In this document: positions 4,059 to 61,264 of the stretch, piece by piece
Layout of the letters: each line of letters opens with the position of its first letter
How positions within the stretch are numbered: position 1 is the stretch's first letter
From: Tachypleus tridentatus
Lineage: Eukaryota
NCBI RefSeq assembly: GCF_004210375.1
Contig: NC_134831.1
Coordinates: 98,825,522-98,889,521 of the forward strand
Direction of reading: 5' to 3'
DNA length: 64,000 nt
Made by a program: the position numbers and the translations under genes
Notes under the pieces: model-generated
Told to the model about the DNA's origin: nothing
Databases searched by the model: none
Seen by the model: the letters and a program-made list of their open reading frames with translations, nothing else

Positions 4059-4732
4059 ATGGCAAATGAAGAAACGATAGAAGTAAGTGGACGTGTTGAA
4101 TGTCGAGAGGTAGAATTTCATGCGATGCATTTGGAACCACGATCTTTTCGACCTTTCAAGTCTAGTGAAGAGTACTTGTATGCCATGAAGGAAGACCTCG
4201 CTGACTGGTTAAACACCCTATACGGTTTGTCCATCACCGCCGAAACTTTTCTAGATAGCTTAGAAACGGGAGTTATTCTCTGTCGGCATGCAAATCACGT
4301 CGTCAGGGTAGCCAGAGATTGGCGGCACTCTTGCCAGGATAGCCTTAATATTACAATCCCGGAACGCGACATAGTGTACCGTAATGACGTCCAACCCGGC
4401 ACGTTTCATGCTCGAGACAACGTCTCCAACTTTATCACATGGTGTAGGGTCTCTCGATCATGGAATGCTTGCTCTTCGAGACAGACGACTTGGTATTAAG
4501 GAAGAATGAGAAAAGCTTTGTCCTTTGTCTGCTAGAAGTGGCTCGACGGTGTTCAAAATTCGGAATGCCCGCGCCACTGTTGGTGCAGATGGAAGATGAA
4601 ATTGATGCGGAGTTAGCCAAAGCTGGGTTCGAGTCTGATGGGCACGAGGCTGATGACGACTCTGATACGTCGGGGGTTGGAGAACCACCACCTCAAATAG
4701 TCACCAACGATCTTCGAAGTCTTCACGAAAGG
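4059..4732 (+). CDS. GAS2-like protein, first coding exon: calponin-homology (CH) domain plus acidic linker. Contains an apparent 1-nt frameshift near 4446-4449.
   Basis: The ATG at 4059-4061 sits in a good Kozak context (aagaccATGg). Translation gives MANEETIEV...[52 protein letters not shown]...[17 protein letters not shown] (frame 0). It then continues in the +2 frame as [58 protein letters not shown]...LRSLHER. The match to the GAS2/GAS2L CH domain (YLLPMKEDLALWL...LCQLA...[45 protein letters not shown]...LIKLEKEIEQE) is strong on both sides of the shift. The exon ends at a consensus donor AGG|GTAAGA (GT at 4733-4734) in phase 0. A possible acceptor (cctataattttcAG at 3953-3954) upstream suggests a 5 prime UTR exon boundary. 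Confidence 0.8.
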
Positions 4733-5178: not shown

Positions 5179-6391
5179 CTTATATCATCCTTGTAGTCTT
5201 CTGTCTTATTCTTTCGTCCATTTATAGCTGTCGAACCGCTTGATCGATTGCGAACACTTAAGAACACGACTTTCAAAGTTTTTTATGAAAACAGAAATCT
5301 CGGAAAGCGGAGTTTCAAAGTTAAAACTGTTCTGAAGCAACAACTGCGAAAGAGACCACTTCCCTACCCAAAAAAAAACACAGTAAACGCTACGATAATG
5401 TTAAACGTACCTTCTGGTACCGTTAACAAGACAATATACAATAATTTGTAAGTGACGGAAACTCAGGTTGTTAGCTACATCTGGAAATCAGCAGTTAGTC
5501 CAATAAACTAAAACACAACGATCCAGTTTGACCATATACTTTGACCACGTATGTCTTAATTTTTGGTTAAATGTAGGTGACCTCCAGTAAAAGGTCAATG
5601 GACAGTTTGTCAAGAAGTGTGGTTTAAAATAGATTTGATCGTTCGTTACAGAAGCTTGTTGAAAAATAAACTGGTGTTGGGTAATTATGGCCACCAGGTT
5701 TAGCAGCATCTGTAATGGAGTTCAAAGTGCATTTCAGTTCATTGTTCACATAAATATTGAATATCTCTGTTCATGCCTTTTCCTGGCCAATTTATTCTTA
5801 TTACACACCCGGCTCTCGTTTCATACGTACTGAAACCGTTTATCTGTCTGAATACATAACTTTAAACTTTTTTTCCAAACATGTTATGGAGCAACCCATT
5901 TGGAATACGTGGGTCATTTCAAAAACAAAACTGTATATTTTTGGAAGCATAGAAAAAATAAATGTACTCTAATATTTCAGCAACAAATATTCAGATTACA
6001 CGATTACAACTGCTTCTTCAACTCTGTTTAAATAGAAATTATTTCCCAGGGTAGGAATTGTAATTTTATAAACCATACATCGATTAAAATGTGCAATGAA
6101 ACGTATGTTTAAGTATTCTTTACTTTCCCTATTTTTTATCGTTAAACATTGTGTGTCATATTACCACTGTGAATATATCGGTGATATGTAGAACGTGTAT
6201 TATTGTAATTTTATTTTATTAACCATATAACTTCTTTCTTATACGGTGGTGTAACAAATGGACAGGCAGGAAGTAAGTGGAGAGGGAAAGAAACCATAAG
6301 ATAGATTTATAATCTTTACATCGGTAGTAAATAAGTTAAATCGGTAGCTGGGTATATGTTTAAGATGTATACAAGTTCTCTGAAATTTGTT

Positions 6392-6642
6392 TGTTTTGAA
6401 TTTCGCGCAAAGCTACTCGAGGGCTATCTGCGTTAGCCGTCCCTAATTTAGCAGTGTAAGACTAGTCATCACCACTCACCGCCAACTCTTGGGCTACTCT
6501 TTATCAACGAATGTGATTCACCGTAATATTATAACGCCCCCACAGCTCAAAGGGCGAGCATATTTGGTGCGACCGGTATTCGAACCCGCGACCCTCGGAT
6601 TACGAGTCGAACGCCTTAACACGCTTGGCCATGCCGGGCCGT
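6392..6642 (-). mobile_element. SINE family A copy
   Basis: Reverse complement of the family A consensus, running from tail (gaatttcgcgcaaagctactcgagggctatctgcg) to head (ggccatgccgggcc). Confidence 0.85.
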
Positions 6643-7960
6643 TCTCTGAAAGGAAAACGTACACTTCTCCGACATGCTAATTAAAGCTGCTAAGATATAC
6701 TAAAGCTTAGTGTGTTAGATTTAGGTAAGAAAGAAAGATTTTATTAAAACAGCACATAATTTCCAATGAGAGGCAAGATAAGATGAGTCACGACTCGTAG
6801 TAGATGAGTCATATTCATATGAAATAACTGTTGTAATGAAAGTTTTCTATCCGTTGCGGAAAATATATTCTAACAATGAGTTGAATGTTTATAATAATTC
6901 TAATCTCAGCCATTCCTGGGAACGAATATAGATGGTATAATAGCCGCATGTGTACTAACGTAATAATTCAGGCCTTCAGGTATATCTTTTGTCTCCTACA
7001 AGTCACTGCCAAAGATGCCTTTCGTTAGATGTTAGTTAGTTTAGCATGACAATGAGACAAGTTCACCAGAGACACTGTTCTTACATACAGTGTAGTGAGT
7101 TAAATTACGACTTGAAAGATGAAAATCACAGCTAGCGAAAAGTTCAATCTTTGTTAAAAGCAGAAAGTTAGCGAAACATTGAAATCTACTTTTTGGTTAA
7201 ATTACTTGTTGGAGATGTTTTCTTATTTTTGTTATGTTCCTCTTTAGGGATTTCATAACAGTTGGTGTGTAAAAACAGTATATGAATGAAAAACTACAAT
7301 AATGCCCTCGGTTTCTATTGTGAGAAACAATCCATGACATTGGCCTTAGAGATTCGAACAGTAAATGTTTTCTAAACGATGACCCTATCACGCGAGAAAT
7401 TTCCGTTTCGCTCGTAGTTCTGAAAATTGTTATTTGTTTTCAAATTATCTCGTGCTCTCTTCTGATTTACAAGAACTAGCACTGAAAATGTATTGAAATG
7501 CTAGATTTTCTTGGCAACACTGTTTTTATGTATTAAGTCTAACATTGTGCAAGACTTCCAAACAGAACTACGTCTAGCGAGTCTAACATTGCAACAGGAC
7601 TTCTGAAGCGGGAAACCAACTTATTAAATTGAGTTTTTACTTGGTTTTCTTTTTATTTATTTACAATGAAAAATAATGGAATTAGCCATATAAAAGATGC
7701 AATTAAAACAATCATTAACATGAATATATGTAAAAACTTAATTTTTGTTGCCATGGTGACCTGTTATACGATTTTAACAAGCGAGTTTATTCATTTAATT
7801 GGAAGAATATGTAGTTTCGGTCTCAATGGCAGCTTACCGACTCGCCAGCCAAACAGCTGGAGTTCCCTAGTCCAGTGAGCAGGCGAAAGATGGCCAGTTG
7901 TCAGCCGTAAGGGCTTTATCCATTTCGCCGAACCACATAATGAGATTGTCTAATAACGAG

Positions 7961-8165
7961 ACAACCTTGTTACTAACCAGCATGGCCAGGTGGTTACAAC
8001 CTTGTTACTAACCAGCATGGCCAGGTGGTTACAACCTTGTTACTAACCAGCATGGCCAGGTGGTTACAACCTTGTTACTAACCAGCATGGCCAGGTGGTT
8101 ACAACCTTGTTACTAACCAGCATGGCCAGGTGGTTACAACCTTGTTACTAACCTGTTTGGCCCAG
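7961..8165 (+). repeat. 35-bp tandem repeat (about 5.5 copies) built from the SINE A 5 prime head plus 16 bp of flank, fused to a full SINE
   Basis: The unit acaaccttgttactaaccagcatggccaggtggtt recurs at 7961, 7996, 8031, 8066, 8101 and 8136. The last unit runs directly into the SINE head cagcatggccaggtggttaaggcactcg at 8166. Confidence 0.85.
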
Positions 8166-8428
8166 CATGGCCAGGTGGTTAAGGCACTCGACTCGTAATC
8201 CGAGGGTCGCGGTATCGAATCCTCGTCACAAAAAACAGGCTCGCTCTTTCGGTCGTGAGGGCGTTATAATGTGACGGTCAAGACCACTGTCCGTTGGTAA
8301 AAGAATAGCCCAAGAGTTGGCGGTGGATGGTAATGACTAGCTGCCTTCCCTCTAGTCTTACAATGCTAAATTAAGGACAGCTAGCGCAGATAACTCTCGT
8401 GTAGCTTTAAGTGAAATTCAAAAAACAC
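8166..8428 (+). mobile_element. SINE family A copy
   Basis: Full head, body and tail (catggccaggtggttaaggcactcgactcgtaatccgagggtcgcggtatcgaatcc ... gcagataactctcgtgtagctttaagtgaaattcaaaaaac). Confidence 0.85.
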
Positions 8429-8469
8429 TTAAGGATGCTTTTGTACTTATGTGTTTTGTTTGTAGTTAA

Positions 8470-8560
8470 GTACAAAGGGTTTTGTGTACTGTGCCCACTA
8501 CGGGTATTGGAACCCGTTTTAAGCGTATGAATGCATAGATCTTACTACTGTTCCACAGGG
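8470..8560 (-). mobile_element. SINE family B copy
   Basis: gtgcccactacgggtattggaacccgttttaagcgtatgaatgcatagatcttactactgttccacaggggc is collinear with the 2398-2487 copy. Confidence 0.5.
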
Positions 8561-8689
8561 GCATGAGTTAGGGATAATTTCATCTTTTGAAAGTTAAGTT
8601 TTAGAATTTAATTCAATAGAAATGGCATACGCTTTTTATTTGAACAGTTTCTCTGGATAATAGAACGCAAGTGTTGGTAATTGAAATAA

Positions 8690-10920
8690 AAACTTTTGAA
8701 AAATTACTGTTAAGTCATAGCAACCAAACGGTACAGAAATATCATGTTTCTGTTTATTTAATAACTTTTGAAAAATCACTGTTAAGTCATAGCAACCAAA
8801 CGGTAGAGAAATATCATGTTTCTGTTTATTTAATAACTTTTGAAAAATCACTGTTAAGTCATAGCAACCAAACGGTAGAGAAATATAATGTTTCTGTTTA
8901 TTTAATAACTTGTGAAAAATCACTGTTAAGTCATAGCAACCAAACGGTAGAGAAATATCATGTTTCTGTTTATTTAATAACTTGTGAAAAATCACTGTTA
9001 AGTCATAGCAACCAAACGGTAGAGAAATATCATGTTTCTGTTTATTTAATAGCTTTTGAAAAATCACTGTTAAGTCATAGCAACCAAACGGTAGAGAAAT
9101 ATCATGTTTCTGTTTATTTACTAGCTTGTGAAAAATCACTGTTAAGTCATAGCAACCAAACGGTAGAGAAATATCATGTTTCTGTTTATTTACTAGCTTT
9201 TGAAAAATCACTGTTAAGTCATAGCAACCAAACGGTAGAGAAATATCATGTTTCTGTTTATTTACTAGCTTTTGAAAAATCACTGTTAAGTCATAGCAAC
9301 CAAACGGTAGAGAAATATCATGTTTCTGTTTATTTACTAGCTTTTGAAAAATCACTGTTAAGTCATAGCAACCAAACGGTAGAGAAATATCATGTTTCTG
9401 TTTATTTACTAGCTTGTGAAAAATCACTGTTAAGTCATAGCAACCAAACGGTAGAGAAATATCATGTTTCTGTTTATTTACTAGCTTTTGAAAAATCACT
9501 GTTAAGTCATAGCAACCAAACGGTAGAGAAATATCATGTTTCTGTTTATTTACTAGCTTTTGAAAAATCACTGTTAAGTCATAGCAACCAAACGGTAGAG
9601 AAATATCATGTTTCTGTTTATTTACTAGCTTTTGAAAAATCACTGTTAAGTCATAGCAACCAAACGGTAGAGAAATATCATGTTTCTGTTTATTTACTAG
9701 CTTTTGAAAAATCACTGTTAAGTCATAGCAACCAAACGGTAGAGAAATATCATGTTTCTGTTTATTTACTAGCTTGTGAAAAATCACTGTTAAGTCATAG
9801 CAACCAAACGGTAGAGAAATATCATGTTTCTGTTTATTTACTAGCTTTTGAAAAATCACTGTTAAGTCATAGCAACCAAACGGTAGAGAAATATCATGTT
9901 TCTGTTTATTTACTAGCTTGTGAAAAATCACTGTTAAGTCATAGCAACCAAACGGTAGAGAAATATCATGTTTCTGTTTATTTACTAGCTTGTGAAAAAT
10001 CACTGTTAAGTCATAGCAACCAAACGGTAGAGAAATATCATGTTTCTGTTTATTTACTAGCTTGTGAAAAATCACTGTTAAGTCATAGCAACCAAACGGT
10101 AGAGAAATATCATGTTTCTGTTTATTTACTAGCTTGTGAAAAATCACTGTTAAGTCATAGCAACCAAACGGTAGAGAAATATCATGTTTCTGTTTATTTA
10201 CTAGCTTGTGAAAAATCACTGTTAAGTCATAGCAACCAAACGGTAGAGAAATATCATGTTTCTGTTTATTTACTAGCTTTTGAAAAATCACTGTTAAGTC
10301 ATAGCAACCAAACGGTAGAGAAATATCATGTTTCTGTTTATTTACTAGCTTTGAAAAATCACTGTTAAGTCATAGCAACCAAACGGTAGAGAAATATCAT
10401 GTTTCTGTTTATTTACTAGCTTTTGAAAAATCACTGTTAAGTCATAGCAACCAAACGGTAGAGAAATATCATGTTTCTGTTTATTTACTAGCTTTTGAAA
10501 AATCACTGTTAAGTCATAGCAACCAAACGGTAGAGAAATATCATGTTTCTGTTTATTTACTAGCTTTTGAAAAATCACTGTTAAGTCATAGCAACCAAAC
10601 GGTAGAGAAATATCATGTTTCTGTTTATTTACTAGCTTTTGAAAAATCACTGTTAAGTCATAGCAACCAAACGGTAGAGAAATATCATGTTTCTGTTTAT
10701 TTACTAGCTTTTGAAAAATCACTGTTAAGTCATAGCAACCAAACGGTAGAGAAATATCATGTTTCTGTTTATTTACTAGCTTGTGAAAAATCACTGTTAA
10801 GTCATAGCAACCAAACGGTAGAGAAATATCATGTTTCTGTTTATTTACTAGCTTGTGAAAAATCACTGTTAAGTCATAGCAACCAAACGGTAGAGAAATA
10901 TCATGTTTCTGTTTATTTAA
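8690..10920. repeat. 72-bp satellite, about 31 tandem copies
   Basis: The exact period is 72 bp (aaaaatcact at 8771 and again at 8843). The unit is tcactgttaagtcatagcaaccaaacggtagagaaatatcatgtttctgtttatttactagcttttgaaaaa, with the variants ttttg/ttgtg and taataact/tactagct. Because 72 is divisible by 3, the tandem copies stay in frame, and this is the sole source of the long ORFs at 8636-10291, 8671-10368 and 10345-10938. Confidence 0.95.
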
Positions 10921-15761: not shown

Positions 15762-18448
15762 AAGGTAATAATCTATTAGTAGCATCACACTGCTTACCAG
15801 ATGTCAAAATATAGTTCTGATCAATAATCTATTAGTAGCATCACACTGCTTACCAGATGTCAAAATATAGTTCTAATCAATAATCTATTAGTAACATCAC
15901 ACTGCTTACCAGATGTCAAAATATAGTTCTGATCAATAATCTATTAGTAGCATCACACTGCTTACCAGATGTCAAAATGTAGTTCTAATCAATAATCTAT
16001 TAGTAGCATCGCACTGCTTACCAGATGTCAAAATGTAGTTCTAATCAATAATCTATTAGTAGCATCGCACTGCTTACCAGATGTCAAAATGTAGTTCTAA
16101 TCAATAATCTATTGGTAGCATCGCACTGCTTACCAGATGTCAAAATGTGGTTCTGATCAATAATCTATTAGTAGCATCACACTGCTTACCAGATGTCAAA
16201 GTGTAGTTCTAATCAATAATCTATTAGTAGCATCACACTGCTTACCAGATGTCAAAATGTAGTTCTAATCAATAATCTATTAGTAGCATCACACTGCTTA
16301 CCAGATGTCAAAATGTAGTTCTAATCAATAATCTATTAGTAGCATCACACTGCTTACCAGATGTCAAAATGTAGTTCTAATCAATAATCTATTAGTAGCA
16401 TCACACTGCTTACCAGATGTCAAAATGTAGTTCTGATCAATAATCTATTAGTAGCATCACACTGCTTACCAGATGTCAAAATGTAGTTCTAATCAATAAT
16501 CTATTAGTAGCATCGCACTGCTTACCAGATGTCAAAATGTAGTTCTAATCAATAATCTATTAGTAGCATCGCACTGCTTACCAGATGTCAAAATGTAGTT
16601 CTAATCAATAATCTATTGGTAGCATCGCACTGCTTACCAGATGTCAAAATGTGGTTCTGATCAATAATCTATTAGTAGCATCACACTGCTTACCAGATGT
16701 CAAAATGTAGTTCTGATCAATAATCTATTAGTAGCATCACACTGCTTACCAGATGTCAAAATGTAGTTCTAATCAATAATCTATTAGTAGCATCACACTG
16801 CTTACCAGATGTCAAAATGTAGTTCTGATCAATAATCTATTAGTAGCATCACACTGCTTACCAGATGTCAAAATGTAGTTCTAATCAATAATCTATTAGT
16901 AGCATCACACTGCTTACCAGATGTCAAAATGTAGTTCTGATCAATAATCTATTAGTAGCATCACACTGCTTACCAGATGTCAAAATGTAGTTCTGATCAA
17001 TAATCTATTAGTAGCATCACACTGCTTACCAGATGTCAAAATGTAGTTCTGATCAATAATCTATTAGTAGCATCACACTGCTTACCAGATGTCAAAATGT
17101 AGTTCTGATCAATAATCTATTAGTAGCATCACACTGCTTACCAGATGTCAAAATGTAGTTCTGATCAATAATCTATTAGTAGCATCACACTGCTTACCAG
17201 ATGTCAAAATATAGTTCTGATCAATAATCTATTAGTAGCATCACACTGCTTACCAGATGTCAAAATGTAGTTCTGATCAATAATCTATTAGTAGCATCAC
17301 ACTGCTTACCAGATGTCAAAATATAGTTCTAATCAATAATCTATTAGTAGCATCACACTGCTTACCAGATGTCAAAATGTAGTTCTAATCAATAATCTAT
17401 TAGTAGCATCACACTGCTTACCAGATGTCAAAATATAGTTCTAATCAATAATTTATTAGTAGCATCACACTGCTTACCAGATGTCAAAATATAGTTCTAA
17501 TCAATAATCTATTAGTAGCATCACACTGCTTACCAGATGTCAAAATGTAGTTCTGATCAATAATCTATTAGTAGCATCACACTGCTTACCAGATGTCAAA
17601 ATGTAGTTCTCATCAATAACCTATTACTAGCATCACACTGCTTACCAGGTGTCAAAATGTAGTTCTAATCAATAATCTTAGTAGGATCACACTGCTTACC
17701 ACATGTCAAAATATAGTTCTAATCAATAATCTATTAGTAGCATCACACTGCCAACCATATGTCAAAATGTAGTTCTAATCAATAATCTATTAGTAGCATC
17801 ACACTGCTTACCAGATGTCAAAATGTAGTTCTAATCAATAATCTATTATTAGCATCACACTGCTTACCAGATGTCAAAATGTAGTTCTAATCAATAATTT
17901 ATTGGTAGCATCACACTGCTTACCAGATGTCAAAATGTAGTTCTAATCAATAATCTTAGTAGCTTCACACTGCTTACCAGATGTCAAAATATAGTTCTAA
18001 TCAATAACCTATTAGTAGCATACACTGCTTACCAGATGTCAAAATGTAGTTCTAATCAATAACCTATTAGTAGCATACACTGCTTACCAGATGTCAAAAT
18101 ATAGTTCTAATCAATAACCTATTAGTAGCATACACTGCTTACCAGATGTCAAAATGTGGTTCTGATCAATAATCTATTAGTAGCATCACACTGCTTACCA
18201 GATGTCAAAATGTAGTTCTAATCAATAACCTATTAGTAGCATCACACTGCTTACCAGATGTCAAAATGTAGTTCTGATCAATAACCTATTAGCAGCATCA
18301 CACTGCTTACCAGATGTCAACATGTAGTTCTGATCAATAATCTATTAGCAGCATCACACTGCTTACCAAATGTCAACATGTAGTTCTGATCAATAATCTT
18401 TTTGTAGCATCACACTGCTTACCGGGTGTCAAAATATAGTTCTAATAT
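15762..18448. repeat. 56-bp satellite, about 48 tandem copies
   Basis: The period is 56 bp (cttaccagat at 15961 and again at 16017). The unit is tcaataatctattagtagcatcacactgcttaccagatgtcaaaatgtagttctaa, with the variants a/g (aaaatatag or aaaatgtag), ctaatc/ctgatc and catcacac/catcgcac. Copies become progressively more diverged toward the 3 prime edge (17600-18448). Confidence 0.95.
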
Positions 18449-19089
18449 TTGTCATTCCTCTACGATTATATTGGCTCTGGTTGTCGCGTAACTTGCTGAT
18501 TTGCATATTCAAAATATTTTTCGTATAACTTATTCAACCTTCTACATATACAGTATATGGTGGTTAAGGTCTCTGTCATATATAAACACACTAATGTTTT
18601 TTACCTGCATATACTAATATAGAATTTTTCAGAATTGTTATTTTTCATACCATTTTGGTAAAAAAAAAAGTTAAATTATTTTCACTTCTTCGAGTACCCA
18701 CTGTACAGTCACCTGTGCAGAGTAACACATTGTCTTCTCATTTGCAAAATGTAAGGTGTTGTTTTTCCACTGTAAAGGTAACGATTTCTCTTGTATTTCA
18801 TTGTGGAAATTGGAATCACTAGTCACGTGTATAATGCTAGTTGCTCTCCTGGACTTTTGTTAATGGTGTAAATGGATATTTAGATTTTTTTTAAATCTAC
18901 ACATGTAGATGAACGTTTGACACGTAAGTTGTTTTACATCACATTTTCAATAAATTTTTGATATGAGTTCTCGAATTTTGAACGTTCCTGTAAAACAAAG
19001 GACAAAACGTTGTCCTACTGGCCAGTGTAGTTTTTCTCATCCTAGTGTTTCTCCAGGTATTTACTGCGCTGAATGATGGAAGGTTTTTT

Positions 19090-19348
19090 TCTTTTTGAAT
19101 TTCGCACAAAGCTACACGCCGACTATCTGCGCTAGCCGTCTCTAATTAGCAGCGTAAGACTAGATGGAAATCAGTTAATCATCACCACCAACTCTTAGGC
19201 TACTTTTTCCAACGAATAGTGGACTTAACCGTCACATTATAATGCCCCCACGGCTGAAAGGACAAGCATATCTATGACGGGGATTCGAACCAGCGACCCT
19301 CGCATTACGAGTCTCGCGCCCTAACCACCTCACTGGCCATCCTGGGCC
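19090..19348 (-). mobile_element. SINE family A copy
   Basis: Reverse complement from tail (gaatttcgcacaaagctacacgccgactatctgcgctagc) to head (gggattcgaaccagcgaccctcgcattacgagtc ... ggccatcctgggcc). Confidence 0.85.
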
Positions 19349-19352
19349 GATG

Positions 19353-19520
19353 CTGGAAGGATACGTACAATTCATTGACGTCGTCAAGTGTTCTGAAGCT
19401 GATTCCTCTGGAAGGATACGTACAATTCATTGACGTCGTCAAGTGTTCTGAAGCTGATTTCTCTGGAAGGATACGTACAATACATTGACGTCGTCAAGTG
19501 TTCTGAAGCTGATTCCTCTG
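19353..19520. repeat. 55-bp tandem repeat, 3 copies, abutting the SINE head
   Basis: ctggaaggatacgtacaattcattgacgtcgtcaagtgttctgaagctgattcctct recurs at 19353, 19408 and 19463. Confidence 0.8.
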
Positions 19521-21939
19521 GTGTTGCAGGTAATCCATGCTCGGTGTGAAGGTGAAAGACAACTAAGTTATTATCAACTCCATACTGGGAACGTGACTAT
19601 TCTCTGGAAAATTGTTTTGGACCGTTGCCCAAATTGTCGTAACGTATTCTTTTTTCTTTAAGATTAACAATTGGATAATCGAGACACTATAATACAATCA
19701 AATTGATGTGATTGTTTTTACTAAGGTAGTTAAAATAAGACAGTTTGCCTTACTTTTGTGATTGAAATCTACTTTTGAAATGGTGTATAGTATATCTAGA
19801 TATGGTAAATAACAACCAACGATTATTACCATTTAGTAAGTCACAGGTATTCCACAGATTAACTAGTTCCTGAGAGGTAAGATCGAGGCAAGAAACTTAC
19901 CCTTTGATTCAGAGACAGTTTTTTCATGATTATTCGAACACTTCTTTTGATTTTATCAATTATGGTTAAGATTTGATATAGTATTTGTATTTTACCACAT
20001 GGTATTTTCATTATGAAGTTTTAGATGGTTTTAGTTTTATGTATTGTTTATTCAGAAATTTTCAAATTAAATATTTCTTCCTGTTATCTTAGTATATACA
20101 AAATTGTTTGTTTTGGACACAATTCTTGAAGTACATATTTTTTAGCAAAATGCTCCATCTTGTCTCGCTGTATGTCATTGATCGAGATGACACCTCGTGG
20201 TGCGTTGTCTTTCAACTGTATCTGTACAGTTTACCATATCTTACACAAAAACTGTCCACAGATTCCGAGCCCCTCTTTCTGGGTCTACAAGTTTAATGAA
20301 ACCATTCAGAATCCAGGTTTTTAAAACAACCAGTGTTGATAATTTTAAGAAAAGTTTTGTAACAAGAGAAGTAAGCCTCAAGAGGTCGCAGTGAAGAGTT
20401 GGTAATGTACAGTATTAATGATTGTAATAACGTGTGATGTTATGTAGTGACTTGGTTAAAAACGTGTGATGATATATCTTGATTTGTAGTTGTACTGAAA
20501 GTAGTTAGGATTACAATGTCAGACTTCCTTCGCAGCGTTAACTGTGTGCTGCGACTGATAGGTAAATAACGTGAACATGTATCTGTTTTATTGTAGTAAT
20601 CCGTTAAGGTTTTAGTCGGGTAGATAATTCACAATACTTATTCATACAGTGCTTCTATCAGTAAACATTTGTACACGTGTATATTAATACCAATAATATA
20701 ATTCTCCTCATGACGTAACAGTCAGTTCCTTTGTGTGTGGAGTTTTGTCTCGTACTATTAAAGTGTTGTATATGTGCATGTTTTATTTTACCGTTATCAA
20801 AGGTTTTACTTTACTTACATTCAAATGTTTGTATTTCTATTCATTGTATTTCATTTTCCTATAAATATTTTCTATAACAATTTATTTTGTAAGAATATTT
20901 TTATAGTGTTGTTTTTCATCTTGTTATGGAGATTTCTGTGTATTATCTTATGTAATACAGTATACATTATGGTTGAATAGGGGTTTCGTTTCTGTTCTCT
21001 TGCAACCACTTGTTTTTTTAACTTAGAACACTTCGCCTTTTGAAGGGTCAATTTTGACATCTCGAGCTGTGGTATCAACATTAGAATTTTTGTATGGTAT
21101 TACTGTTGGTTATTCCGACTGACCATATTACATATCCACTTTTACTTAACTCGTCAGTTTTATTTTAAAGGTTATTTTTTATCTGTAATCACTGTTAACG
21201 TGTTTTCATTCGTTAAATGGCGTTTGTGAGGTTGCACTCGTGATTTTCTTAAAGGGTTTCAGCTGTAATGATTTAATGATTTTTTTTCTATCTAAAGAAC
21301 TGTTCTCTGTTCTTGTAAGTGTGAAAGAAAACTAAACCACAATTTAATTAATATGGTTTTGTAAACTTTATTGAATTTAAAGTTAAAATTAACTGTTACT
21401 TGTGGACAAACCTGAAGGAAAGATGAGAGTATTGTATGAACTAACCATCTTTTTTGCTGAGTTCAGTTGGTATTACTTGAAAACTACGTGTTATCGCTAA
21501 AATGACTCACTTGTCAGTTTGCTATGTTGTGTGTGGAAAGTTTACCTCTCCACTTGATGGTTCAGCAATATGTCTGACAGCTTATGTTACAAATTTGGTT
21601 TCGGTGCTCATGGTTGGCAGAGCACATATGGTTCATTGTGTAGCTTTAATTCGCAACAAGCGAGCGCACAAAGCATTTAAAATGTATTTCATTAAAACAG
21701 TAAAATGTGCAGTAGCTTAAAACCAAATAAAGGACTTAAGGTTCCCACAATGTATTTCCAATCATCATACGTATTCATATTGCGTTTAATTATGTATGTT
21801 TTTATATGGTATAATACCAGTGCACTATCACAAAAACAAAACAAAGCTGAAATACAGTGAATCAAGGAAAGTGGTTATTGAATCATTTTGTCACTGACAA
21901 GGGTAAAAGGAAACTTGTCATTAATGCATCTTTAAAGTA

Positions 21940-24257: not shown

Positions 24258-25345
24258 CTATTAAATCTTGGGTTTTACAAGCTGATATACTGGTATATAT
24301 ACACTTTATAAAGCCCACGACCGTGGTAGAATATTATTAAATCTTGTGTTTTACAAGCTGATATACTGGTATATATACACTTTATAAAGCCCACGACCGT
24401 GGTAGAATATTATTAAATCTTGTGTTTTACAAGCTGATATACTGGTATATATACACTTTATAAAGCCCACGACCGTGGTAGAATATTATTAAATCTTGTG
24501 TTTTACAAGCTGATATACTGGTATATATACACTTTATAAAGCCCACGACCGTGGTAGAATATTATTACAATCTTGGGTTTTACAAGCTGATATACTGGTA
24601 TATATACACTTTATAAAGCACACGACCGTGGTAGAATATTATTAAATCTTGTGTTTTACAAGCTGATATACTGGTATATATACACTTTATAAAGCCCACG
24701 ACCGTGGTAGAATATTATTACAATCTTGGGTTTTACAAGCTGATATACTGGTATATATACACTTTATAAAGCCCACGACCGTGGTAGAATATTATTACAA
24801 TCTTGGGTTTTACAAGCTGATATACTGGTATATATACACTTTATAAAGCCCACGACCGTGGTAGAATATTATTACAATCTTGGGTTTTACAAGCTGATAT
24901 ACTGGTATATATACACTTTATAAAGCCCACGACCGTGGTAGAATATTATTACAATCTCGGGTTTTACAAGCTGATATACTGGTATATATACACTTTATAA
25001 AGCCCACGACCGTGGTAGAATATTATTACAATCTCGGGTTTTACAAGCTGATATACTGGTATATATACACTTTATAAAGCCCACGACCGTGGTAGAATAT
25101 TATTACAATCTCGGGTTTTACAAGCTGATATACTGGTATATATACACTTTATAAAGCCCACGACCGTGGTAGAATATTATTACAATCTCGGTTTTACAAG
25201 CTGATATACTGGTATATATACACTTTATAAAGCCCACGACCGTGGTAGAATATTATTACAATCTCGGGTTTTACAAGATGATATACTGGTATATATACAC
25301 TTTATAAAGCCCACGACCGTGGTAGAATATTATTACAATCTCGAT
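24258..25345. repeat. 77 to 79-bp satellite, about 14 copies, with block-wise variants
   Basis: The unit is (attaaatcttgtg | attacaatcttggg | attacaatctcggg)ttttacaagctgatatactggtatatatacactttataaagcccacgaccgtggtagaatatt. The three variants occur in consecutive blocks along the array. Confidence 0.9.
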
Positions 25346-25564: not shown

Positions 25565-25972
25565 ACCCCAGTGGCGCAGCTGTATATCTGCGGATTACAT
25601 CGCTAGAAACCTGGTTTTTAAAACCCGTGGTGGGTAGAGAACACAGATAGCCCACCGTGAAGCTTTTGTTCTAAACCCGTGGTGGGTAGAACACAGATAG
25701 CCCACCGTGAAGCTTTTGTTCTAAACCCGTGGTGGGTAGAACACAGATAGCCCACCGTGGAGCTTTTGTTCTAAACCCGTGGTGGGTAGAACACAGATAG
25801 CCCACCGTGGAGCTTTTGTTCTAAACCCGTGGTGGGTAGAACACAGATAGCCCACCGTGTAGCTTTTGTTCTAAATCCGTGGTGGGTAGAACACAGATAG
25901 CCCGCCGTGTAGCTTTTGTTCTAAACCCGTGGTGGGTAGAACACAGATAGCCCGCCGTGTAGCTTTTGTTCG
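25565..25972 (+). repeat. SINE family B head followed by a 7-copy 50-bp tandem array of its tail module
   Basis: 25565-25625 reads ccccagtggcgcagctgtatatctgcggattacatcgctagaaacctggttttta (B-type head). The 50-bp unit aaacccgtggtgggtagaacacagatagcccaccgtgaagcttttgttct then recurs at 25621, 25673, 25723, 25773, 25823, 25873 and 25923. Confidence 0.8.
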
Positions 25973-27784
25973 TAACTTCAAACATAAGATCTTCCGTAAA
26001 ATTTAAGTTATGAACAGCATTCATATAGCATGCAACTTATACTGTATATCTAACTGTGGCCGGTAATAGGATCGAGTCTCTGAAACTTGCCAGAATAAGA
26101 TGTTGTTTATAGAAGATTTCTAGAAACTCGCTTATTCGATGTGTTGTTGGTTAGTGGTCATCGATTAGTGGTAAAAAACCCAACAATTTCATGTTGTTCA
26201 TTCTTATGGTGCTTTCCCTCATGTGACGGAATATCACTAAATCTTGAAGCTGGACATTGTTACACCGTAATTATATGAACAGTAAAATCAATAACATAGT
26301 TCATACGTTAGATTATTTTACGACCACATGTCCCCTTCAATTTTCCTTCTGCTTTTAACTTCGATCTGCAATAACATTTAACTAGAAAACCGAAGTTATA
26401 TTTTATTAAACATCTTTACGTATGTAATATTGTTAGTTATTTTGGTAAAACGAAATAAGAGAATGTTGGTTGTTTTGGAGCTTTTTAAAACAAAATCGAA
26501 ACTAAAGTTGTTACTGCTGTCGTGTGGGTAATTCCTGGTATCAATATGTTCATAATACTTTAAATCCTCGTGTTATAAGGTTACCAGTCGTGACCTGTAA
26601 GCTGATAACATACATACGAATCGTAAAACGAGACTATGGTATCAGTTCCCTTAAGACGTTGGTAGTAAACAACTTAAAGTCGGCCAGTCTTTGAAGTACG
26701 AATTGTCCGTTGTTTTGGATCTGATAAGCATTGTTTTCGCTAACAGCACACTGATGTACTTGTTAATGTAGAGATGCATCGTGAAACTTGCATTTGTGGA
26801 GCCATTTGAAACAATGTCTATAGATATCGTGCTGTGAATTAAAAAACAGTTTAGTCAAACAATTGCACGAGCATGCATTGCCTCCCCCTCGCGGTGGGCG
26901 GGCAACCCTTCCATTTTCATAAGACCCGCATCTGGCACATCATGGGAAACGTTTGCCTATTGTTTACCTTAAACCTGATAAACTGGTTCGAGTATGCTTA
27001 ACTCGTACTTAATTTGATTATTAACTTAGTCCGTTGAAAATAGGGTTAGTTTGTATCGTGCAAAATGTACCCATCACCGAGAGTTCCGGGCTCTGAACTA
27101 AAGAACTAAAGTTTATTCTTAGAGAGGGAAAAAAAAGAACAAGAAAAACAAACGTCGTGTCTGTAGTATACTTTCAGCTATGTTTAAGTAATTGGGCCTA
27201 ACGAAGGTTGAACTTTATGATCACGATTAGAGTAAGTAAATTAAATTATAGAACTAGCCAATCTTTGGCCTACTTTACGAAAGTTTTTAAATACAGAAAA
27301 TGTGTTTAGTGGTCTATATAGGTCGCTATCCTTTAGTTAAAAAGTGTTCGACGTTTACTAGTTGGTATCTAAAATGATTAGAAACACGAAAGCAAGTGAA
27401 CTTCTGCCTTGTTATAACAGAATAGCCCGAATCAAGGCACACAAACGTATAGAACCAGTTGATAAACTTTTAAACTGGTTGTTCAAGGAAGAAATAATTT
27501 CATGAAGAGATTTGTTGAATACAAATGTGGTATTAAATTAGGCTATTTGTTTGTTTGTTTTATTGCTAAAAATGGAGAAACTGAAGGCGATAACCTAGTA
27601 TACAATAGTCTTGTATTCTATATTCAGTTGTTTGTAGCCCCTAAACAACAGTCTGTAATGGGCCCTGACTTACAATCTACAGCATGACCAATTTTCCATG
27701 TTCTAAGCAGTATGTTTATAGAGCAGTAACGAACTCTAAAATAGTCCATCCATATCCTATAGTGGCAGTGTCCTGCACGCTCGC

Positions 27785-28195
27785 AACTATACAATAAACC
27801 TACTGAACAGCACAGAAATAATACAATAACGAACTGCATAACAGACCACTAGTTTTGAACTAAATAGAGATCGAGGTAACGCCCTCGACTGTACAATAAA
27901 CCTACTGAACAGCACAGAAATAATACAATAACGAACTGCATAACAGACCACTACGTTTTGAACTAAATAGAGATCGAGGTAACGCCCTCGACTGTACAAT
28001 AAACCTACTGAACAGCACAGAAATAATACAATAACGAACTGCATAACAGACCACTACGTTTTGAACTAAATAGAGATCGAGGTAACGCCCTCGACTGTAC
28101 AATAAACCTACTGAACAGCACAGAAATAATACAATAACGAACTGCATAACAGACCACTACGTTTTGAACTAAATAGAGAGCGAGGTAACCAAGTG
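27785..28195. repeat. 103-bp tandem repeat, about 4 copies
   Basis: ctgtacaataaacctactgaacagcacagaaataatacaataacgaactgcataacagaccactacgttttgaactaaatagagatcgaggtaacgccctcga recurs at 27889, 27992 and 28095. The short ORFs at 27624-28147 are repeat artefacts. Confidence 0.9.
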
Positions 28196-30230: not shown

Positions 30231-31851
30231 CAGTTACGTCAGAAAGTGTTCGTACCCCTGCGTCGTGAGTAGTTTTTTTCCTCATAACTTAAAGTATCAC
30301 GATTAGGATAATGTAAATATAGTGTATTATAAATATTACACTAACACACATCTACATAAATTTTTATCTAAATTGAACGTAATAAACTGTTTATAAACAA
30401 ATAACCAAACATAGGAGGGGCAGAAAGTGTTCGTGCGTCTACTTTAATGGTCAGTTGTGTAGCCTTTCAGGTGAATTACTTGGCACAATCTCTCCTCATA
30501 GTCCTCCATGATCGTTTGACAGTACTCGACTGGTATTTTCTTCCATTCTTCTTTACAGAAGGCCTCCAACTCTTGCAAGTTTTTCAGATGATGCTGATGA
30601 ACCTTGGTCTTCAACTCATGCCAAACGTTTTCAATTGGGTTGAAATCGGGTGACTGCGATGGCCATTCCAGAACGTTTATATGGTTCCTCTGCAACCATG
30701 ATTGCACATATTTTGATGTGTGCTTAGTCATTGTCGTGCTGGAAGATCTAACGACGCCCAAGCCACAAGTTCCGAGCATCATTCTTAATATAAGTGCCTA
30801 ATATATCAACTTACTCTTCTTTTTTCATGATTCTGTTGACACGGTGAAGGCTGCCTACACTAGAAGAGCTGAAGGAACCCCATAGCATGATCGAGACGCC
30901 TCCGTGTTTAGCTTTAGGGATGGTGTTCTTTGGAAGATTTCGTTCTCCCTTCTTAAGGAAAATATAGCGAACATCATTGTGGCCGAAAAGCTCGATTTTA
31001 GTTTCGTCTGACCAACAAATACTCTTCCAATAGGTAAAGGGTTTATCTACATGCTTTCTTGCATACCTCAATCGTGCTTCTAAATGAACAGGCTTTAAAT
31101 ATGGAGTTCTACGAGGACAGCATGTTTTGAACCCAGAAGAGCGTAACATGTTCATAACTGTAAAGGTGCTTATTTCAACCCCAGTTTCCCTTACCAGTTT
31201 CTGTGTGTCATTACGTGTTAAACGAGGGTTCTTACTAACTTCTCTGAGAACCTACCTCTCGGTTCTCTCTGGAATTTTGGTGGGGCATCCAAAACAAGGG
31301 AGGTTAGCAGTTGATCCTGTAAGCTTAAACTTGGCAATTATGCTTTAAACAGTAGATTTTGGCACATTAAGTTGGGTAGCAATACCAGAAAGAGACACAC
31401 GAGACTTGTATTTTACAATTATTCGTTTTTTTTAAATCACTGGACAGTTGTTTCCTGTTCGCCATGTGACCAAGCAGATAATGACGGAGACGGCGCTAAA
31501 TTGCCGGAAGTACATTTTTTGCTGGCTAAATTCCAATAATTATGAACCCAGTGTCTAGTTCTGGAATGGTATAATGTAGTTTGTTTGCCAAACTAAACAA
31601 AGTGTTTACGGGAATATCAGTGTTTTCACACGTTCTGAACTGTACGAACACTTTCTGCTTCTCCTGTTTTTTGGTTGTTTGTTTATAAACAGTTTATTTA
31701 TCGTTTAATTTACATAAAATCTATGTAGATGTGTGTTAGTATAATATTTTATAATGTATTATAAGTCTATTAGCTTGATCGTGATACTTTTTAAGTTGTG
31801 AGCAAAAAACTACTCGGGACGCAGGGGTACGAACACTTTCTGTCGTAACTG
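30231..31851 (-). mobile_element. Tc1-like DNA transposon, IR/DR type (~1.62 kb) with ~200-bp terminal inverted repeats and TA target-site duplications; non-autonomous or degraded
   Basis: The left end reads ta|cagttacgtcagaaagtgttcgtacccctgcgtcgtgagtagttttttt. The right end reads aaaaaactactcgggacgcaggggtacgaacactttctgtcgtaactg|ta. A second inner copy of the gaaagtgttcgt(a/g)c motif sits ~180 bp inside each end (30421-30439 and 31652-31670), and the subterminal 30292-30420 mirrors 31690-31800. This two-sites-per-inverted-repeat layout is the architecture of the Sleeping Beauty/Tc3 type elements. Confidence 0.9.
30444..31465 (-). pseudogene. Tc1-family transposase, disrupted (in-frame stop, frameshift, DDE motif altered)
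   Basis: The minus-strand reading MANRKQLSSDLKKRIIVKYKSRVSLSGIATQLNVPKSTV then hits a stop. It resumes as ...LRSSGFKTCCPRRTPYLKPVHLEARLRYARKHVDKPFTYWKSICWSDETKIELFGHNDVRYIFLKKGERNLPKNTIPKAKHGGVSIMLWGSFSS...VNRIMKKEE then stops, then frameshifts into ...SSSTTMTKHTSKYVQSWLQRNHINVLEWPSQSPDFNPIENVWHELK... These are classic Tc1 motifs, but the FQQDNDPKHTS box reads SSTTMTKHTS. Confidence 0.85.
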
Positions 31852-39224: not shown

Positions 39225-39560
39225 GTTTAGAAAGGCATGATGCATACAATACAACTTGTATAATTAGAAAGGCATGATGCATACAATACAACTTGTATAA
39301 TTAGAAAGGCATGATGCATACAATACAACTTGTATAATTAGAAAGGCATGATGCATACAATACAACTTGTATAATTAGAAAGGCATGATGCATACAATAC
39401 AACTTGTATAATTAGAAAGGCATGATGCATACAATACAACTTGTATAATTAGAAAGGCATGATGCATACAATACAACTTGTGTAATTAGAAAGGCATGAT
39501 GCATACAATACAACTTGTGTAATTAGAAAGGCATGATGCATACAATACAACTTGTGTAAT
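39225..39560. repeat. 37-bp tandem repeat, about 9 copies
   Basis: ttagaaaggcatgatgcatacaatacaacttgtataa is repeated with period 37 (aaaggcatga at 39231 and again at 39268). The last copies carry tgtgtaa instead of tgtataa. Confidence 0.9.
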
Positions 39561-41065
39561 TAAATTATTTTTTGAAAATTTTACATGTCTTCCACATGTG
39601 GGTGTTGATAATTTTTCAGTTACAGGTAGCTTTAGTGTTTGGTTTATCCTTATCAGATAAGCTATTTTCACAAATTAAGTTGTTGTTTTTTTGTTATATT
39701 CACCCATAAGAGTTTGTCTTCCCACGCATCGTTCTTGCGCTTACCACCCCATCCGCCCATCTTAAATATAATACTTTCTATATGTCGCTCTAGAAAGCGG
39801 ACCACACTAGTCGCGTCACACTTTATGGGAGGAGCTAGATAGAAATTTGTTTAAACCATTGAATTTTAAGCTGTTAGATATAACCTGACTGTAAACTTGC
39901 TGAAAAATGTAAAACAATCTTTATATAACACAAAGCCAAAAGACTAAAATTGCATGTATTAGTATGGACGTGATACTTTAGAACTGGTTCGGTAAATAGT
40001 TCGACAGCTTCGTTCTTACTGAGATACATCTCAAGTACTCATTTCTTTCTTAAAAACGGACAATCTCGGTCTTAACCAGAACCAAATGCGTTATCATGTG
40101 ACTAGTCATTCTCTTACGACAGGTTGTGTGTCGTCTAGATGTGTAAACTTTATATTACAGGTTTAGTTTATCTAGATGCGGTTGTTTTGTTTAGAACTTT
40201 CTCGATATTTTTCGTGTAATATAGGATGTATAATTTACTAAGGTCAGAGGTTACAGTAAGTATGAGTCAATGTTTTGTCACGACTAAAACTTGCTTGCAA
40301 ATACTTTACCTAACAGTGTAGTCTTAGCTTATATTTTAAGCTACGTGTAGTTAAAGTAGAATTAGCTTAGCTGTAATCGAGATTAGTTTAAAATAGACCA
40401 TTTTCTAATCCATACGCAGGACTTTAGCAAGTTTTGGGTAAACATTACAACTTAAAGGTGTCTACAACCCGTTTTTCTCTTTGTTGCTGAGCAGTGTTTT
40501 CATCTCGGACAAGTTATGTTACAACAAACAAAAACTATCGATGTACGGGTAGTAACTAAGGTCTTACTCTCGTATTTTAGTTTAACCCATACAAGAGCTT
40601 GACATCTCACGTACAAAATACTCAAAAATAACATTGGTAATTCTCTCTCATATAAATCAGTTTAAGTTACGGTAAGATAGCATCTCACGTTCGATGTGAC
40701 AGTCAACTTTTCATGTTAATTCGTGAGTTCATTGTTTGTCTTTCTTGGTTTAGCTCTATGTTGCATCGCAGAAGATCAGGTTAGCAAAGTTCTAATTTTC
40801 CTTATGTAAAACCCTCGAAGTTATTGATCATTAGCCTCGTATGTCTAGGAAAATTGTAGTGTTGCTTTCAGTATAAACGTATTGGGCTGTAAGTTTATAC
40901 TAGTTCTTAAACAGTATGTTCTACACACGACCTCATTTTATGTACAATAATATATTAAATATTTTTTTTACTTTGTTTCACCTACAGTTCTGTTACGTCA
41001 GTCAAAACGTATACTGTGAACGTGCAATGACTGACGTTTGTTTCAGTCACAATAGATACAGATAT

Positions 41066-57195: not shown

Positions 57196-58161
57196 AGGTT
57201 TCCTTGACTATCACTTTCCCAACGTTGTGTAGAACACGAGCGTAAGTTGTTCTAGATGGCAATTAAGTGTTTGGGAATAGATTTTTGTCAACCGATTGGC
57301 CAAAACATGTGGTACTTTAGTTATGGTTGAATATAAATTTTGCCCACTACCGAACGTGCATTAGACATAACTTTTCGAAATGCATGCCTACAACAATATT
57401 GGTATGGAAGTAACACAGGTGCACAACACACTTACAATCACACTATGTGTACTATAGTTAGTGTCGACGAGGCCTTTCGCCCCCAAACCAGGGCTCTTCG
57501 GGCTGATTGGGATACCACAAACATGGTACTGGTGGAGACGTTGTTTGACAGTACTTCCTACTGGAGCGAGTAGGTTTCTGTTAATATTACGTCACAATAC
57601 GTCATAATTAAGGTATCATTTGTTTATTTATTTAAACATGTTTATTACCTTTATTCAATTAACGTGTTCATCACTCGAAAGAACTGTCGAGTTCGCATGC
57701 TAGTTTTTCTTCAACTAACCAGTTAATGAACAGTAGGTAATTTGAAAGTTACGTTATCGGGTGGATATTCCGACTTCGAAAATTCCAATTGTGCGAGTTC
57801 TCGCACAAACACAACCTGCCACAAACAAAATGTTTGCATTGTGTTTTCCAAGTGTTAACGGTAAATATTTCTGCTTTAACATAGTTTGCAACGTACAATT
57901 TGAACAATCGAAACTGTACTCACTGTGGGCCTGCATAAGAATATTCTAGAAAAAAAACTTGTCGCATGCCACCGGTGAAAGAATTACACCAATGTTGATG
58001 TGTATTCTTTTCACGTGAAGAGATTTTACGTGCGTTTGCTTCTACGCTAATATAAGTTATCACTCGTTTCCACTCGCTCAGGTGCAACACAGACGTAGTA
58101 CTTCATCATAAAGGTCACAAAGTTTCTACTCGTCTGCAATGTTAATGAAATGGAATATTAA

Positions 58162-58465
58162 TTTTCACACTATGGGAACAAAACGACTGTTGAACGATGT
58201 TTGGTCAGGACATATTTAATGATTTTCACACTATGGGAACAAAACGACTGTTGAACGATGTTTGGTCAGGACATATTTAATGATTTTCACACTATGGGAA
58301 CAAAACGACTGTTGAACGATGTTTGGTCAGGACATATTTAATGATTTTCACACTATGGGAACAAAACGACTGTTGAACGATGTTTGGTCAGGACATATTT
58401 AATGATTTTCACACTATGGGAACAAAACGACTGTTGAACGATGTTTGGTCAGGACATATTTAATG
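58162..58465. repeat. 61-bp tandem repeat, 5 copies, ending 35 bp upstream of a splice acceptor
   Basis: ttttcacactatgggaacaaaacgactgttgaacgatgtttggtcaggacatatttaatga recurs at 58162, 58223, 58284, 58345 and 58406. Confidence 0.9.
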
Positions 58466-58500
58466 AAGTTTTTGCGATGTAATTTTGAAATTAATTACAG

Positions 58501-59874: not shown

Positions 59875-61264
59875 ATCTTCACCGTACAACTTCAGTCTCT
59901 CCACGTCACCACAAACACGTCGACGCATGTTGGCCATTTCTTCGGGTCAGCAAGACATTGGCCCATCTACTGACACACATGACATTCCACCACGTGAACC
60001 GTCAAGAAGTTCTCACTACAGCGACGACTCGTCGACATCTAGTGCCAGCCTATATTACTATAGTGAAAGTTCATCTCAAGAGGAAGGCAAGTTTGCAAGG
60101 TCATCGCGGCCACTACCCTGCACTGCAGATAGTTCTTCCGAATTCTCTGAAGGAGAAAGTCGAGCAGGTTCTCGAATCTCTAGTCAACCCCGAAAATCCA
60201 GTCTTCGGAAGTTGTATTGCATGTCAGAAAATGGGGACATGGTTGACAACTGTTCCCGTGTATATTTGTCAGATGGTTGTGACTCTGGCTTTGGTCCCGA
60301 ATCGTCAGAAACAAGTTCAGTCCTTTCGGGAGATGACCAGCGAAAAGTTAGGGACATGGGAAAAACTAGGTTAAAGGACACAAAGCAAACTCCTGGACAA
60401 GTCTCTAAAGATGCCCCTGTGGATTCAAGTTTGTCCGACGGTAGCACACCAACTTTAAAGTCTGTAAAGAAAGTCAAACAAGTTTCAGTAAGCCCATCTG
60501 GAAGGAAAATGACACCAAACATTAGTTATAAATCTCAAAGCACGGAAAATTTATACTGGTGCAAATATAGCGAAAGAGTCCAGATGAATCGCCAGAACAG
60601 TTCCAGATCATCAGTTTATGGTCATAAAGACCGATGTTCGTTAACAGATTCTTCAAGCTGTACATCAACTATTCCTAGATGTTATTCTCAAGCTAGTGAT
60701 ATTGGTGGACTTGGATCATCTTTGACCAGAAACACTCCAGGACGGTTTTCATATAAACCCCCGACAGACGTTCGGCCAAAAGTGGACACAGGAAGTAAAA
60801 CGTGGGCTTTCAGACAGCGTTCCACTAGATCTTCCATCAGCCCCGATTTCTGTCGTAACCCTTCTAGAGGAAGCAACATTTCTCCTATTAAGACTAAAAC
60901 AAACCTCAAGTCCCGAAGTGCCGAATCAAGCCCTGCCAAATCGATTGTAACAGCTACTAAAGTGCAGAAACTTCTAGAAGACATTGATTTAGCCACAGAT
61001 GACACATTTTTCAATGAAATGCAGAGATTTATAAGTAACTATCGAGAGAAAATCGAGAATAAATTACAAAATGAACAAGAAGATTCACATTTGAACGATG
61101 TTGAGAGCACTTCATCAACACCAACCATGTTATACTCTCCAGATTCTGATCGCCCACCAAGTCGTGGTTTCGGTTATAATCAACAGTCCCCCAAGTTTCG
61201 ACCTAGGAGAGAAAGTCAGGGAGGATCCACAAAAATTCCACTACCAGTTTGGTATAACAAATAA
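59875..61264 (+). CDS. GAS2-like protein: terminal exon encoding the long Ser-rich low-complexity tail, with a C-terminal TKIP (SxIP-like) motif. Stop TAA at 61262-61264.
   Basis: The acceptor is ttatattttttaaattccttgcAG|atcttc (AG at 59873-59874). With the two carried-over nucleotides ag, translation reads R SSPYNFSLSTSPQTRRRMLAISSGQQ ... The open frame then runs 1.39 kb, corresponding to the 445-aa ORF at 59927-61264. It is Ser/Thr-rich and basic, as the GAS2L C-terminal tails are, and ends ...GGSTKIPLPVWYNK*. AATAAA signals lie at 61365-61370 and 61600-61605. Confidence 0.75.

Follow-up and report, generated by a model that had tools for sequence, protein, structure and literature searches.

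The tandem array that adjoins a full-length SINE at 7961-8180 of the 64-kb window (the whole stretch of 64,000 nucleotides analysed here) is very probably a locus-specific minisatellite, formed after insertion of the SINE by ordinary DNA-level processes unconnected with retroposition. In the TRF output for the 64-kb window, 7961-8153 is an array with a period of 35 bp (5.5 copies, 100% matches, no indels, score 386), and this perfect 193-bp periodicity cannot be due to chance. The first-pass annotation had described 5.5 copies of a 35-bp unit running into a complete SINE. The tandem array, its five identical units and its continuation into the SINE (8159-8424/8426) are as described, but the figure of 5.5, which is that given by TRF, is better replaced by six units, five of 35 bp and one of 45 bp, the longer unit being SINE-proximal and the whole structure occupying 220 bp. 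The five 35-bp units (ACAACCTTGTTACTAACCAGCATGGCCAGGTGGTT; 7961-8135, plus strand) are letter-for-letter identical on direct comparison (0 differences in 175 bp) and represent a derived form with a 10-bp deletion. The sixth unit (ACAACCTTGTTACTAACCtgtttggcccAGCATGGCCAGGTGGTT; 8136-8180, plus strand) is the ancestral form and corresponds to the intact flank/SINE junction, with 23 bp of flanking sequence (8136-8158) followed by SINE nucleotides (nt) 1-22 (8159-8180). It continues, unbroken and colinear, into the full-length SINE at 8159.

The intact junction at 8136-8180 reads ACAACCTTGTTACTAACC-tgttt/ggccc-AGCATGGCCAGGTGGTT, with the slash marking the start of the SINE, and each 35-bp unit reads ACAACCTTGTTACTAACC-AGCATGGCCAGGTGGTT. 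The ten bases tgtttggccc (8154-8163, plus strand), consisting of 5 bp of flank and SINE nt 1-5, are missing from all the 35-bp units, and this gap, which is bounded by CC/CC microhomology, removes the true 5' terminus of the SINE. Each 35-bp unit is composed of acaaccttgttactaa (flank -23 to -8), cc and agcatggccaggtggtt (SINE nt 6-22); the cc is ambiguous, corresponding to flank -7 and -6 or to SINE nt 4 and 5, and the unit can therefore be written as flank -23 to -6 (18 bp) plus SINE nt 6-22, with the CC assignable either way. The earlier division of the unit into 16 bp of flanking sequence and 19 bp of SINE head has to be revised accordingly, as TSD-bounded copies of the element place SINE nt 1 at 8159. 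The SINE part of each unit, 17-19 nt in length (SINE A nt 4/6-22), matches the resident copy exactly and the consensus at 95% identity. The outer boundaries of the array are the same as its inner joint (gag/ACAACC ... GGTT/aaggc, with slashes at the boundaries), indicating a simple head-to-tail tandem multiplication of one segment. The proposal that slippage was seeded at the SINE/flank junction fits in this respect, since a single junction-spanning segment has been multiplied head-to-tail with the same boundaries throughout. The two novel joints of the 35-bp array are GGTGGTTACAACCTT and CTAACCAGCATGG. From a reading of the sequence, the joint between units, ggtt[a]caacc, has a microhomology of only 1 bp (A), and an alternative 4-bp microhomology, GTTA, was left unused.

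The resident element (8159-8426, plus strand; BLAST, MAFFT and nhmmer) is a full-length copy, about 266-271 bp long and with a tail ending in ...gaaattcaaaaaac, of a family designated SINE A. It is 89.5% identical to the consensus of the window copies, i.e. 10.5% diverged (BLAST), and it covers positions 1-265 of the nhmmer profile of the family (E = 4e-85). SINE A is dispersed, with at least 21 copies or fragments within the 64-kb window (nhmmer), and the tails of the aligned copies end in ...AAATTCAAAAACAAAC (MAFFT). The copy at 6389-6640 has the TSD tttcagagaac on both sides and the copy at 19088-19348 has the TSD ccttccagcatc / ccttccatcatt; the TSD is 11-12 bp long at these copies and directly abuts GGCCCGGCATGG in both. 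These two clean, TSD-bounded copies identify SINE nt 1 as the first G of GGCCC in GGCCCGGCATGG, at position 8159 in the resident copy. A comparison of 8136-8158 with the sequence past the tail yielded no clean TSD for the resident SINE A, the flank of which is putatively delimited from the consensus 5' end of other copies. A SINE-B-like copy on the minus strand (8437-8558; alignment, BLAST at 8455-8520 and repeat search) lies tail-to-tail with the SINE A tail and may obscure this TSD; the tails are inverted repeats of each other over 12 nt, at 8422-8433/8446-8457 (AAAACACTTAAG / CTTATGTGTTTT).

The head of the resident SINE A is tRNA-like, the segment 8167-8226 scoring 15 bits with the Rfam tRNA model (below the gathering score of 29); in the whole window, ARAGORN found no tRNA and Rfam returned nothing at gathering thresholds. 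A box-A-like motif (TGGCCAGGTGG) and a box-B-like motif (GGTATCGAATCC, or GGTTCGAATCC in the consensus) are recognizable by eye, and SINE A appears to be a tRNA-derived element with putative pol III boxes A and B. The family is also found in Limulus polyphemus, at the locus L001 (GCA_000517525.1), where it is 91% identical to the window consensus and where SINE B is present too. SINE A and SINE B have a similar 3' module (...CAGATAGCCC..GTGTAGCTTTG.GC..AA.T.CAAA), which suggests that they may have a partner LINE in common. SINE A is probably Lipo, a CORE-SINE of 265 bp reported from Limulus polyphemus (Luchetti and Mantovani, 2016, PMC5804259), the two being matched by length (265 bp versus about 266-271 bp) and host clade, not by sequence.

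The age of the array can be gauged against that of the SINE, as the extra units show no differences in 175 bp, whereas the resident SINE A is 10.5% off its consensus. For independently evolving units that date from the insertion, the probability of finding no change in 175 bp would be 0.895^175, or about 4e-9, and it would still be only about 1e-4 for a post-insertion divergence of 5%. The array is, thus, much younger than the insertion, or the perfect identity of its units could alternatively reflect the ongoing homogenisation of an older array; both point to a DNA-level property of minisatellites and argue against an origin during integration. SINE nt 6 is A in all the units but the G of a CpG in the family consensus (MAFFT), which would fit with the units having been copied from an already decayed genomic copy, but this argument is weak because some other SINE A copies also have an A.

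From this anatomy, these boundaries, the unit identity and the age contrast, we infer an order of events and a likely enzymology, with the order and the recency of the expansion being read from one haplotype. A SINE A copy would first have inserted into an intron of a GAS2-like gene. Much later, the 45-bp junction segment (23 bp of flank and SINE nt 1-22) would have been tandemly duplicated, and the 1-bp microhomology of the joint ggtt[a]caacc suggests that this might have occurred by end-joining or by a replication template switch. This first duplication step has no clear mechanistic signature, as the proto-unit is flanked by 1 bp and not by short direct repeats. A deletion of 10 bp between two CC dinucleotides of an upstream copy would then have generated the 35-bp unit and created the quasi-palindrome TAACCA-gca-TGGCCA-gg-TGGTTA; the duplication and the deletion could also have been a single complex template-switch event. 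Replication slippage or unequal sister-chromatid exchange would finally have raised the 35-bp variant to five copies, with the ancestral 45-bp unit staying at the edge of the array beside the SINE. The survival of an ancestral unit at the edge is usual for minisatellite arrays. Folded as plus-strand DNA, a dimer of the unit reaches -17 kcal/mol (z = -3.5), versus z = -1.05 for the intact junction; this predicted hairpin potential fits with slippage-prone DNA, and a hairpin may have aided the expansion. The array multiplies the box-A-like motif, but never box B, and it is probably without function.

The window contains a CH-domain exon at about 4059-4450 (plus strand; Pfam PF00307) belonging to a GAS2-like ('pickled eggs') gene, with the 'GAS2-like protein pickled eggs' of Limulus polyphemus as its best relative (75% identity). 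The Limulus locus L001 aligns to this exon at 78.6% nucleotide identity. These matches, together with the SINE A and SINE B copies at L001, identify the window as xiphosuran DNA. Horseshoe crabs underwent whole-genome duplications (PMC7815833), and L001 is therefore probably an ohnologue rather than an orthologue. A serine-rich open reading frame (ORF) of 445 amino acids at 59927-61264 (plus strand), to which Pfam assigns no domain, possibly represents the final exon of the GAS2-like gene, in which case the array would be intronic and most of the window would be intron. Exact look-ups of this ORF and of those at 7666-7878 and 4059-4499 returned no record. The remnant of a Tc1/mariner-type transposase, with two ORFs (Pfam HTH_Tnp_Tc3_2 and DDE_3), is present at 30444-31155 on the minus strand.

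The density of minisatellites in the window is unusually high. TRF detected 17 arrays with a period of at least 25 bp, covering 13.8% of the window, including 56 bp x 48 at 15767-18446, 77 bp x 14 at 24259-25341, 103 bp x 3.9 at 27786-28189, 37 bp x 9.1 at 39227-39562 and 61 bp x 5 at 58161-58466. A 72-bp x 30.9 minisatellite with 99% identity lies at 8693-10919, 265 bp downstream of the resident SINE A; a period of 72 bp corresponds to 24 codons, which accounts for spurious ORFs of 551, 565 and 197 amino acids on both strands of this array, and its unit has no similarity to the SINEs or to other sequences in the window or in L001. The Limulus locus has seven arrays in 18 kb.

Given this abundance, the question is whether SINE ends seed arrays more often than other sequences do. 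SINE sequence is found in only two of the 17 arrays, those with periods of 35 bp and 50 bp, and SINEs cover about 8.7% of the de-expanded sequence. In a simulation in which 17 seeds with the observed unit lengths were placed at random, 1.7 SINE-overlapping arrays were expected versus the two observed (P(>=2) = 0.52), and one or more seeds would straddle a SINE boundary with a probability of 34%. The counts match random seeding, so no SINE-specific property or mechanism is needed. The notion that a SINE end nucleated a new minisatellite at this site is, thus, acceptable as a description, but it implies no special role for the SINE. A stronger proposition would be that tRNA-derived SINE ends in horseshoe-crab genomes, especially the palindrome-rich 5' head and its junction, are preferential sites of minisatellite seeding and add measurably to the minisatellite load (about 14% of the window), with the 35-bp array as an example caught in the act, in which a deletion created a slippage-prone quasi-palindrome. 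We consider this very unlikely. It is likewise very unlikely that SINE 5' junctions are real hotspots in this genome, due perhaps to a persisting endonuclease target site or to the palindromic TGGCCA and GGTTA-TAACC motifs of the head. A hotspot would be consistent with the hairpin potential of the unit, which is above random, and with the proposal that the endonuclease site at the 5' end of Alu is a recombination hotspot (Ahmed and Liang, PMC3389668); three arrays in the 64 kb are associated with SINEs in some way (the 35-bp array of head and flank, the 50-bp array of SINE B and a 55-bp array abutting a SINE A head), and a duplication in Limulus begins inside a SINE-A-like copy. Against this, the random-seeding simulation fully explains the counts, 15 of the 17 arrays are without SINE sequence, and the four SINE-adjacent cases hit different parts of the elements, with no common breakpoint: a 5' junction, a 3' half, pure flank and a 3' part.

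The second of these cases had been noted before as a SINE B head followed by seven 50-bp copies at 25565-25972, and the present analysis agrees with that reading. SINE B, an element of about 122 bp, was defined from the copies at 2368-2488 and in L001. In the copy at 25566-25984 (plus strand; TRF, sequence, SINE B alignment and BLAST), a single head (25566-25620) precedes seven repeats of the 3' half, a segment of about nt 55-111 that begins at the end of box B and stops just short of the TAACTTCAAAC tail. TRF places the array at 25621-25971 (50 bp x 7.0, 97% matches), and the tail is found once, behind the final unit. This array is an internal duplication of the 3' half that includes no flank, a configuration unlike that of the 35-bp array. 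The third case, a 55-bp x 3.1 array at 19353-19521 (minus strand; TRF and sequence), ends 4 bp from the head of the minus-strand SINE A at 19088-19348, and its unit has no SINE similarity by BLAST. The last 8 bp of this array belong to the 12-bp TSD of that SINE, and the sequence beyond the SINE resembles a further, degenerate 55-bp unit. This arrangement could have come about if the SINE landed at the margin of an existing repeat and homogenisation subsequently affected only one side. The fourth case, in Limulus L001 (8817-9029, within the region 8636-9029; KI899285.1), is a 105-bp x 2.0 duplication with 97% identity, the start of which lies in the 3' part of an old copy resembling SINE A and which continues past this copy into sequence that is not SINE. 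A resemblance by eye between the SINE B unit and the 77-bp array at 24259-25341 (GCCCAC...CCGTGGTAGAA) was also considered, but BLAST revealed no significant similarity.

It is very unlikely that the 35-bp repeat belongs to a satellite present at many loci or to a composite mobile element (with the array and the SINE moving as one, or with the array forming the end of some other element), in which case the 'flank' half of the unit would not be local. Such units do exist in squamates, in which some SINE-derived satellites (sSats) have 30-44 nt of non-SINE sequence in their units (Vassetzky, Kosushkin and Ryskov, 2023, PMC10702118). At the locus studied here, however, the 18-bp flank half has no match outside the array in the 64-kb window or in 18 kb of Limulus DNA, and it is absent upstream of all the other SINE A copies (20 or more) in the window. 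The sixth unit runs on colinearly for 5 more bp to the intact 5' end of the SINE, as local flank would. The 35-bp unit as a whole is absent elsewhere in the window and in the 18 kb of Limulus DNA, so that an independent satellite without SINE association, which the first-pass annotation had named as the observation that would make the adjacency coincidental, was not encountered in these sequences. The 1.3 kb upstream of the array have no second copy in the window or in L001 (BLAST), and searches with 6641-7960 and 8425-8692 against the same sequences gave, as their sole match, a SINE-B-like piece downstream. The joint between units had no matches in the JGI metagenome contigs, but this negative result is uninformative, since the SINE A core also had none and the collection probably contains no horseshoe-crab DNA. 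The possibility that the flank half is itself an older, degraded SINE was raised by a resemblance to ATGGCCAGTTG...TCAGCCGTAAGGGC at 7890-7920 and was discarded, as nhmmer found no match to the SINE A profile upstream at E < 10.

LINE-mediated integration finishes at the 5' junction, by template jumping or microhomology joining (TPRT). The array lies exactly at this junction and its joints carry microhomologies of 1-2 bp, and it had accordingly been suggested that the units arose by repeated aborted or template-switched integration, i.e. by template switching during TPRT between the 5' part of the SINE RNA and the upstream target, or by a pile-up of aborted insertions. We regard such an origin as highly improbable. 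A TPRT junction would be as old as the element and would include its 5' terminus, but the units are 100% identical beside a SINE that is 10.5% diverged, and they lack both SINE nt 1-3/5 and the adjacent 5 bp of flank. Each unit would also have required two jumps at identical positions, repeated five times (ten jumps), with a microhomology of only 1-2 nt as a guide. The A at SINE nt 6 in all units, where the consensus has G, also speaks against integration, but weakly, given that other copies share it. It is extremely unlikely that the copy number or the entire array is an artefact of mis-assembly or over-polishing, as might be suspected from the perfect identity of the units and the many near-perfect arrays in the window, because the array spans just 220 bp, less than the length of any long read and of many short-read inserts, is anchored by unique sequence on both sides and shows a coherent internal organisation that includes an ancestral unit at the edge.

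A post-insertional, locus-specific minisatellite of this kind has well-documented relatives. In the human genome, 136 tandem repeats consist of part of an Alu reiterated next to the 5' end of a full Alu (Ahmed and Liang, 2012, PMC3389668), and Alu-derived minisatellites have also been described by Jurka and Gentles (2006, Gene 365:21, cited in PMC3389668), whose slippage model, in outline, has a proto-unit bounded by short direct repeats. As in the Alu minisatellites, head-to-tail copies of a short SINE segment lie in situ on the 5' side of the full parent, having arisen by local expansion and not by transposition, and the units are younger than the element. The horseshoe-crab array differs in that half of its unit is non-SINE flank (18 bp), with a 10-bp deletion removing the SINE terminus, and in that its proto-unit has only a 1-bp overlap in place of the direct repeats of the model. 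The element is also of a different origin, Alu being 7SL-derived and the SINE here apparently tRNA-derived, and the host is a horseshoe crab. The squamate sSats resemble the array in having units taken from the head, body or LINE-derived region of tRNA-derived SINEs, but they form many arrays per genome, whereas a single locus with six units and a flank half unique in the window and in 18 kb of Limulus DNA is seen here. Small 'nuclei' of a few units have been considered to be the starting stage of sSats (PMC10702118), and the present array is at most such a nucleus, not a satellite family.

The array has the features by which a TE-derived minisatellite beside its parent is recognized, namely units of at least 10 bp arranged head-to-tail, homology to a TE and colinearity with the parent copy, and it is a chelicerate example of a phenomenon documented mainly in primates and squamates. 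There is no evidence for a new mechanism; this is an ordinary minisatellite origin in a SINE- and minisatellite-crowded genome. Its import beyond the locus is small; possible uses are in teaching and as a variable marker within the putative GAS2-like intron. What it offers is a tidy and resolved case of minisatellite birth, in which the ancestral edge unit has been kept, a single microhomology-bounded deletion separates the two forms of the unit, and the SINE dates the event as post-insertional.
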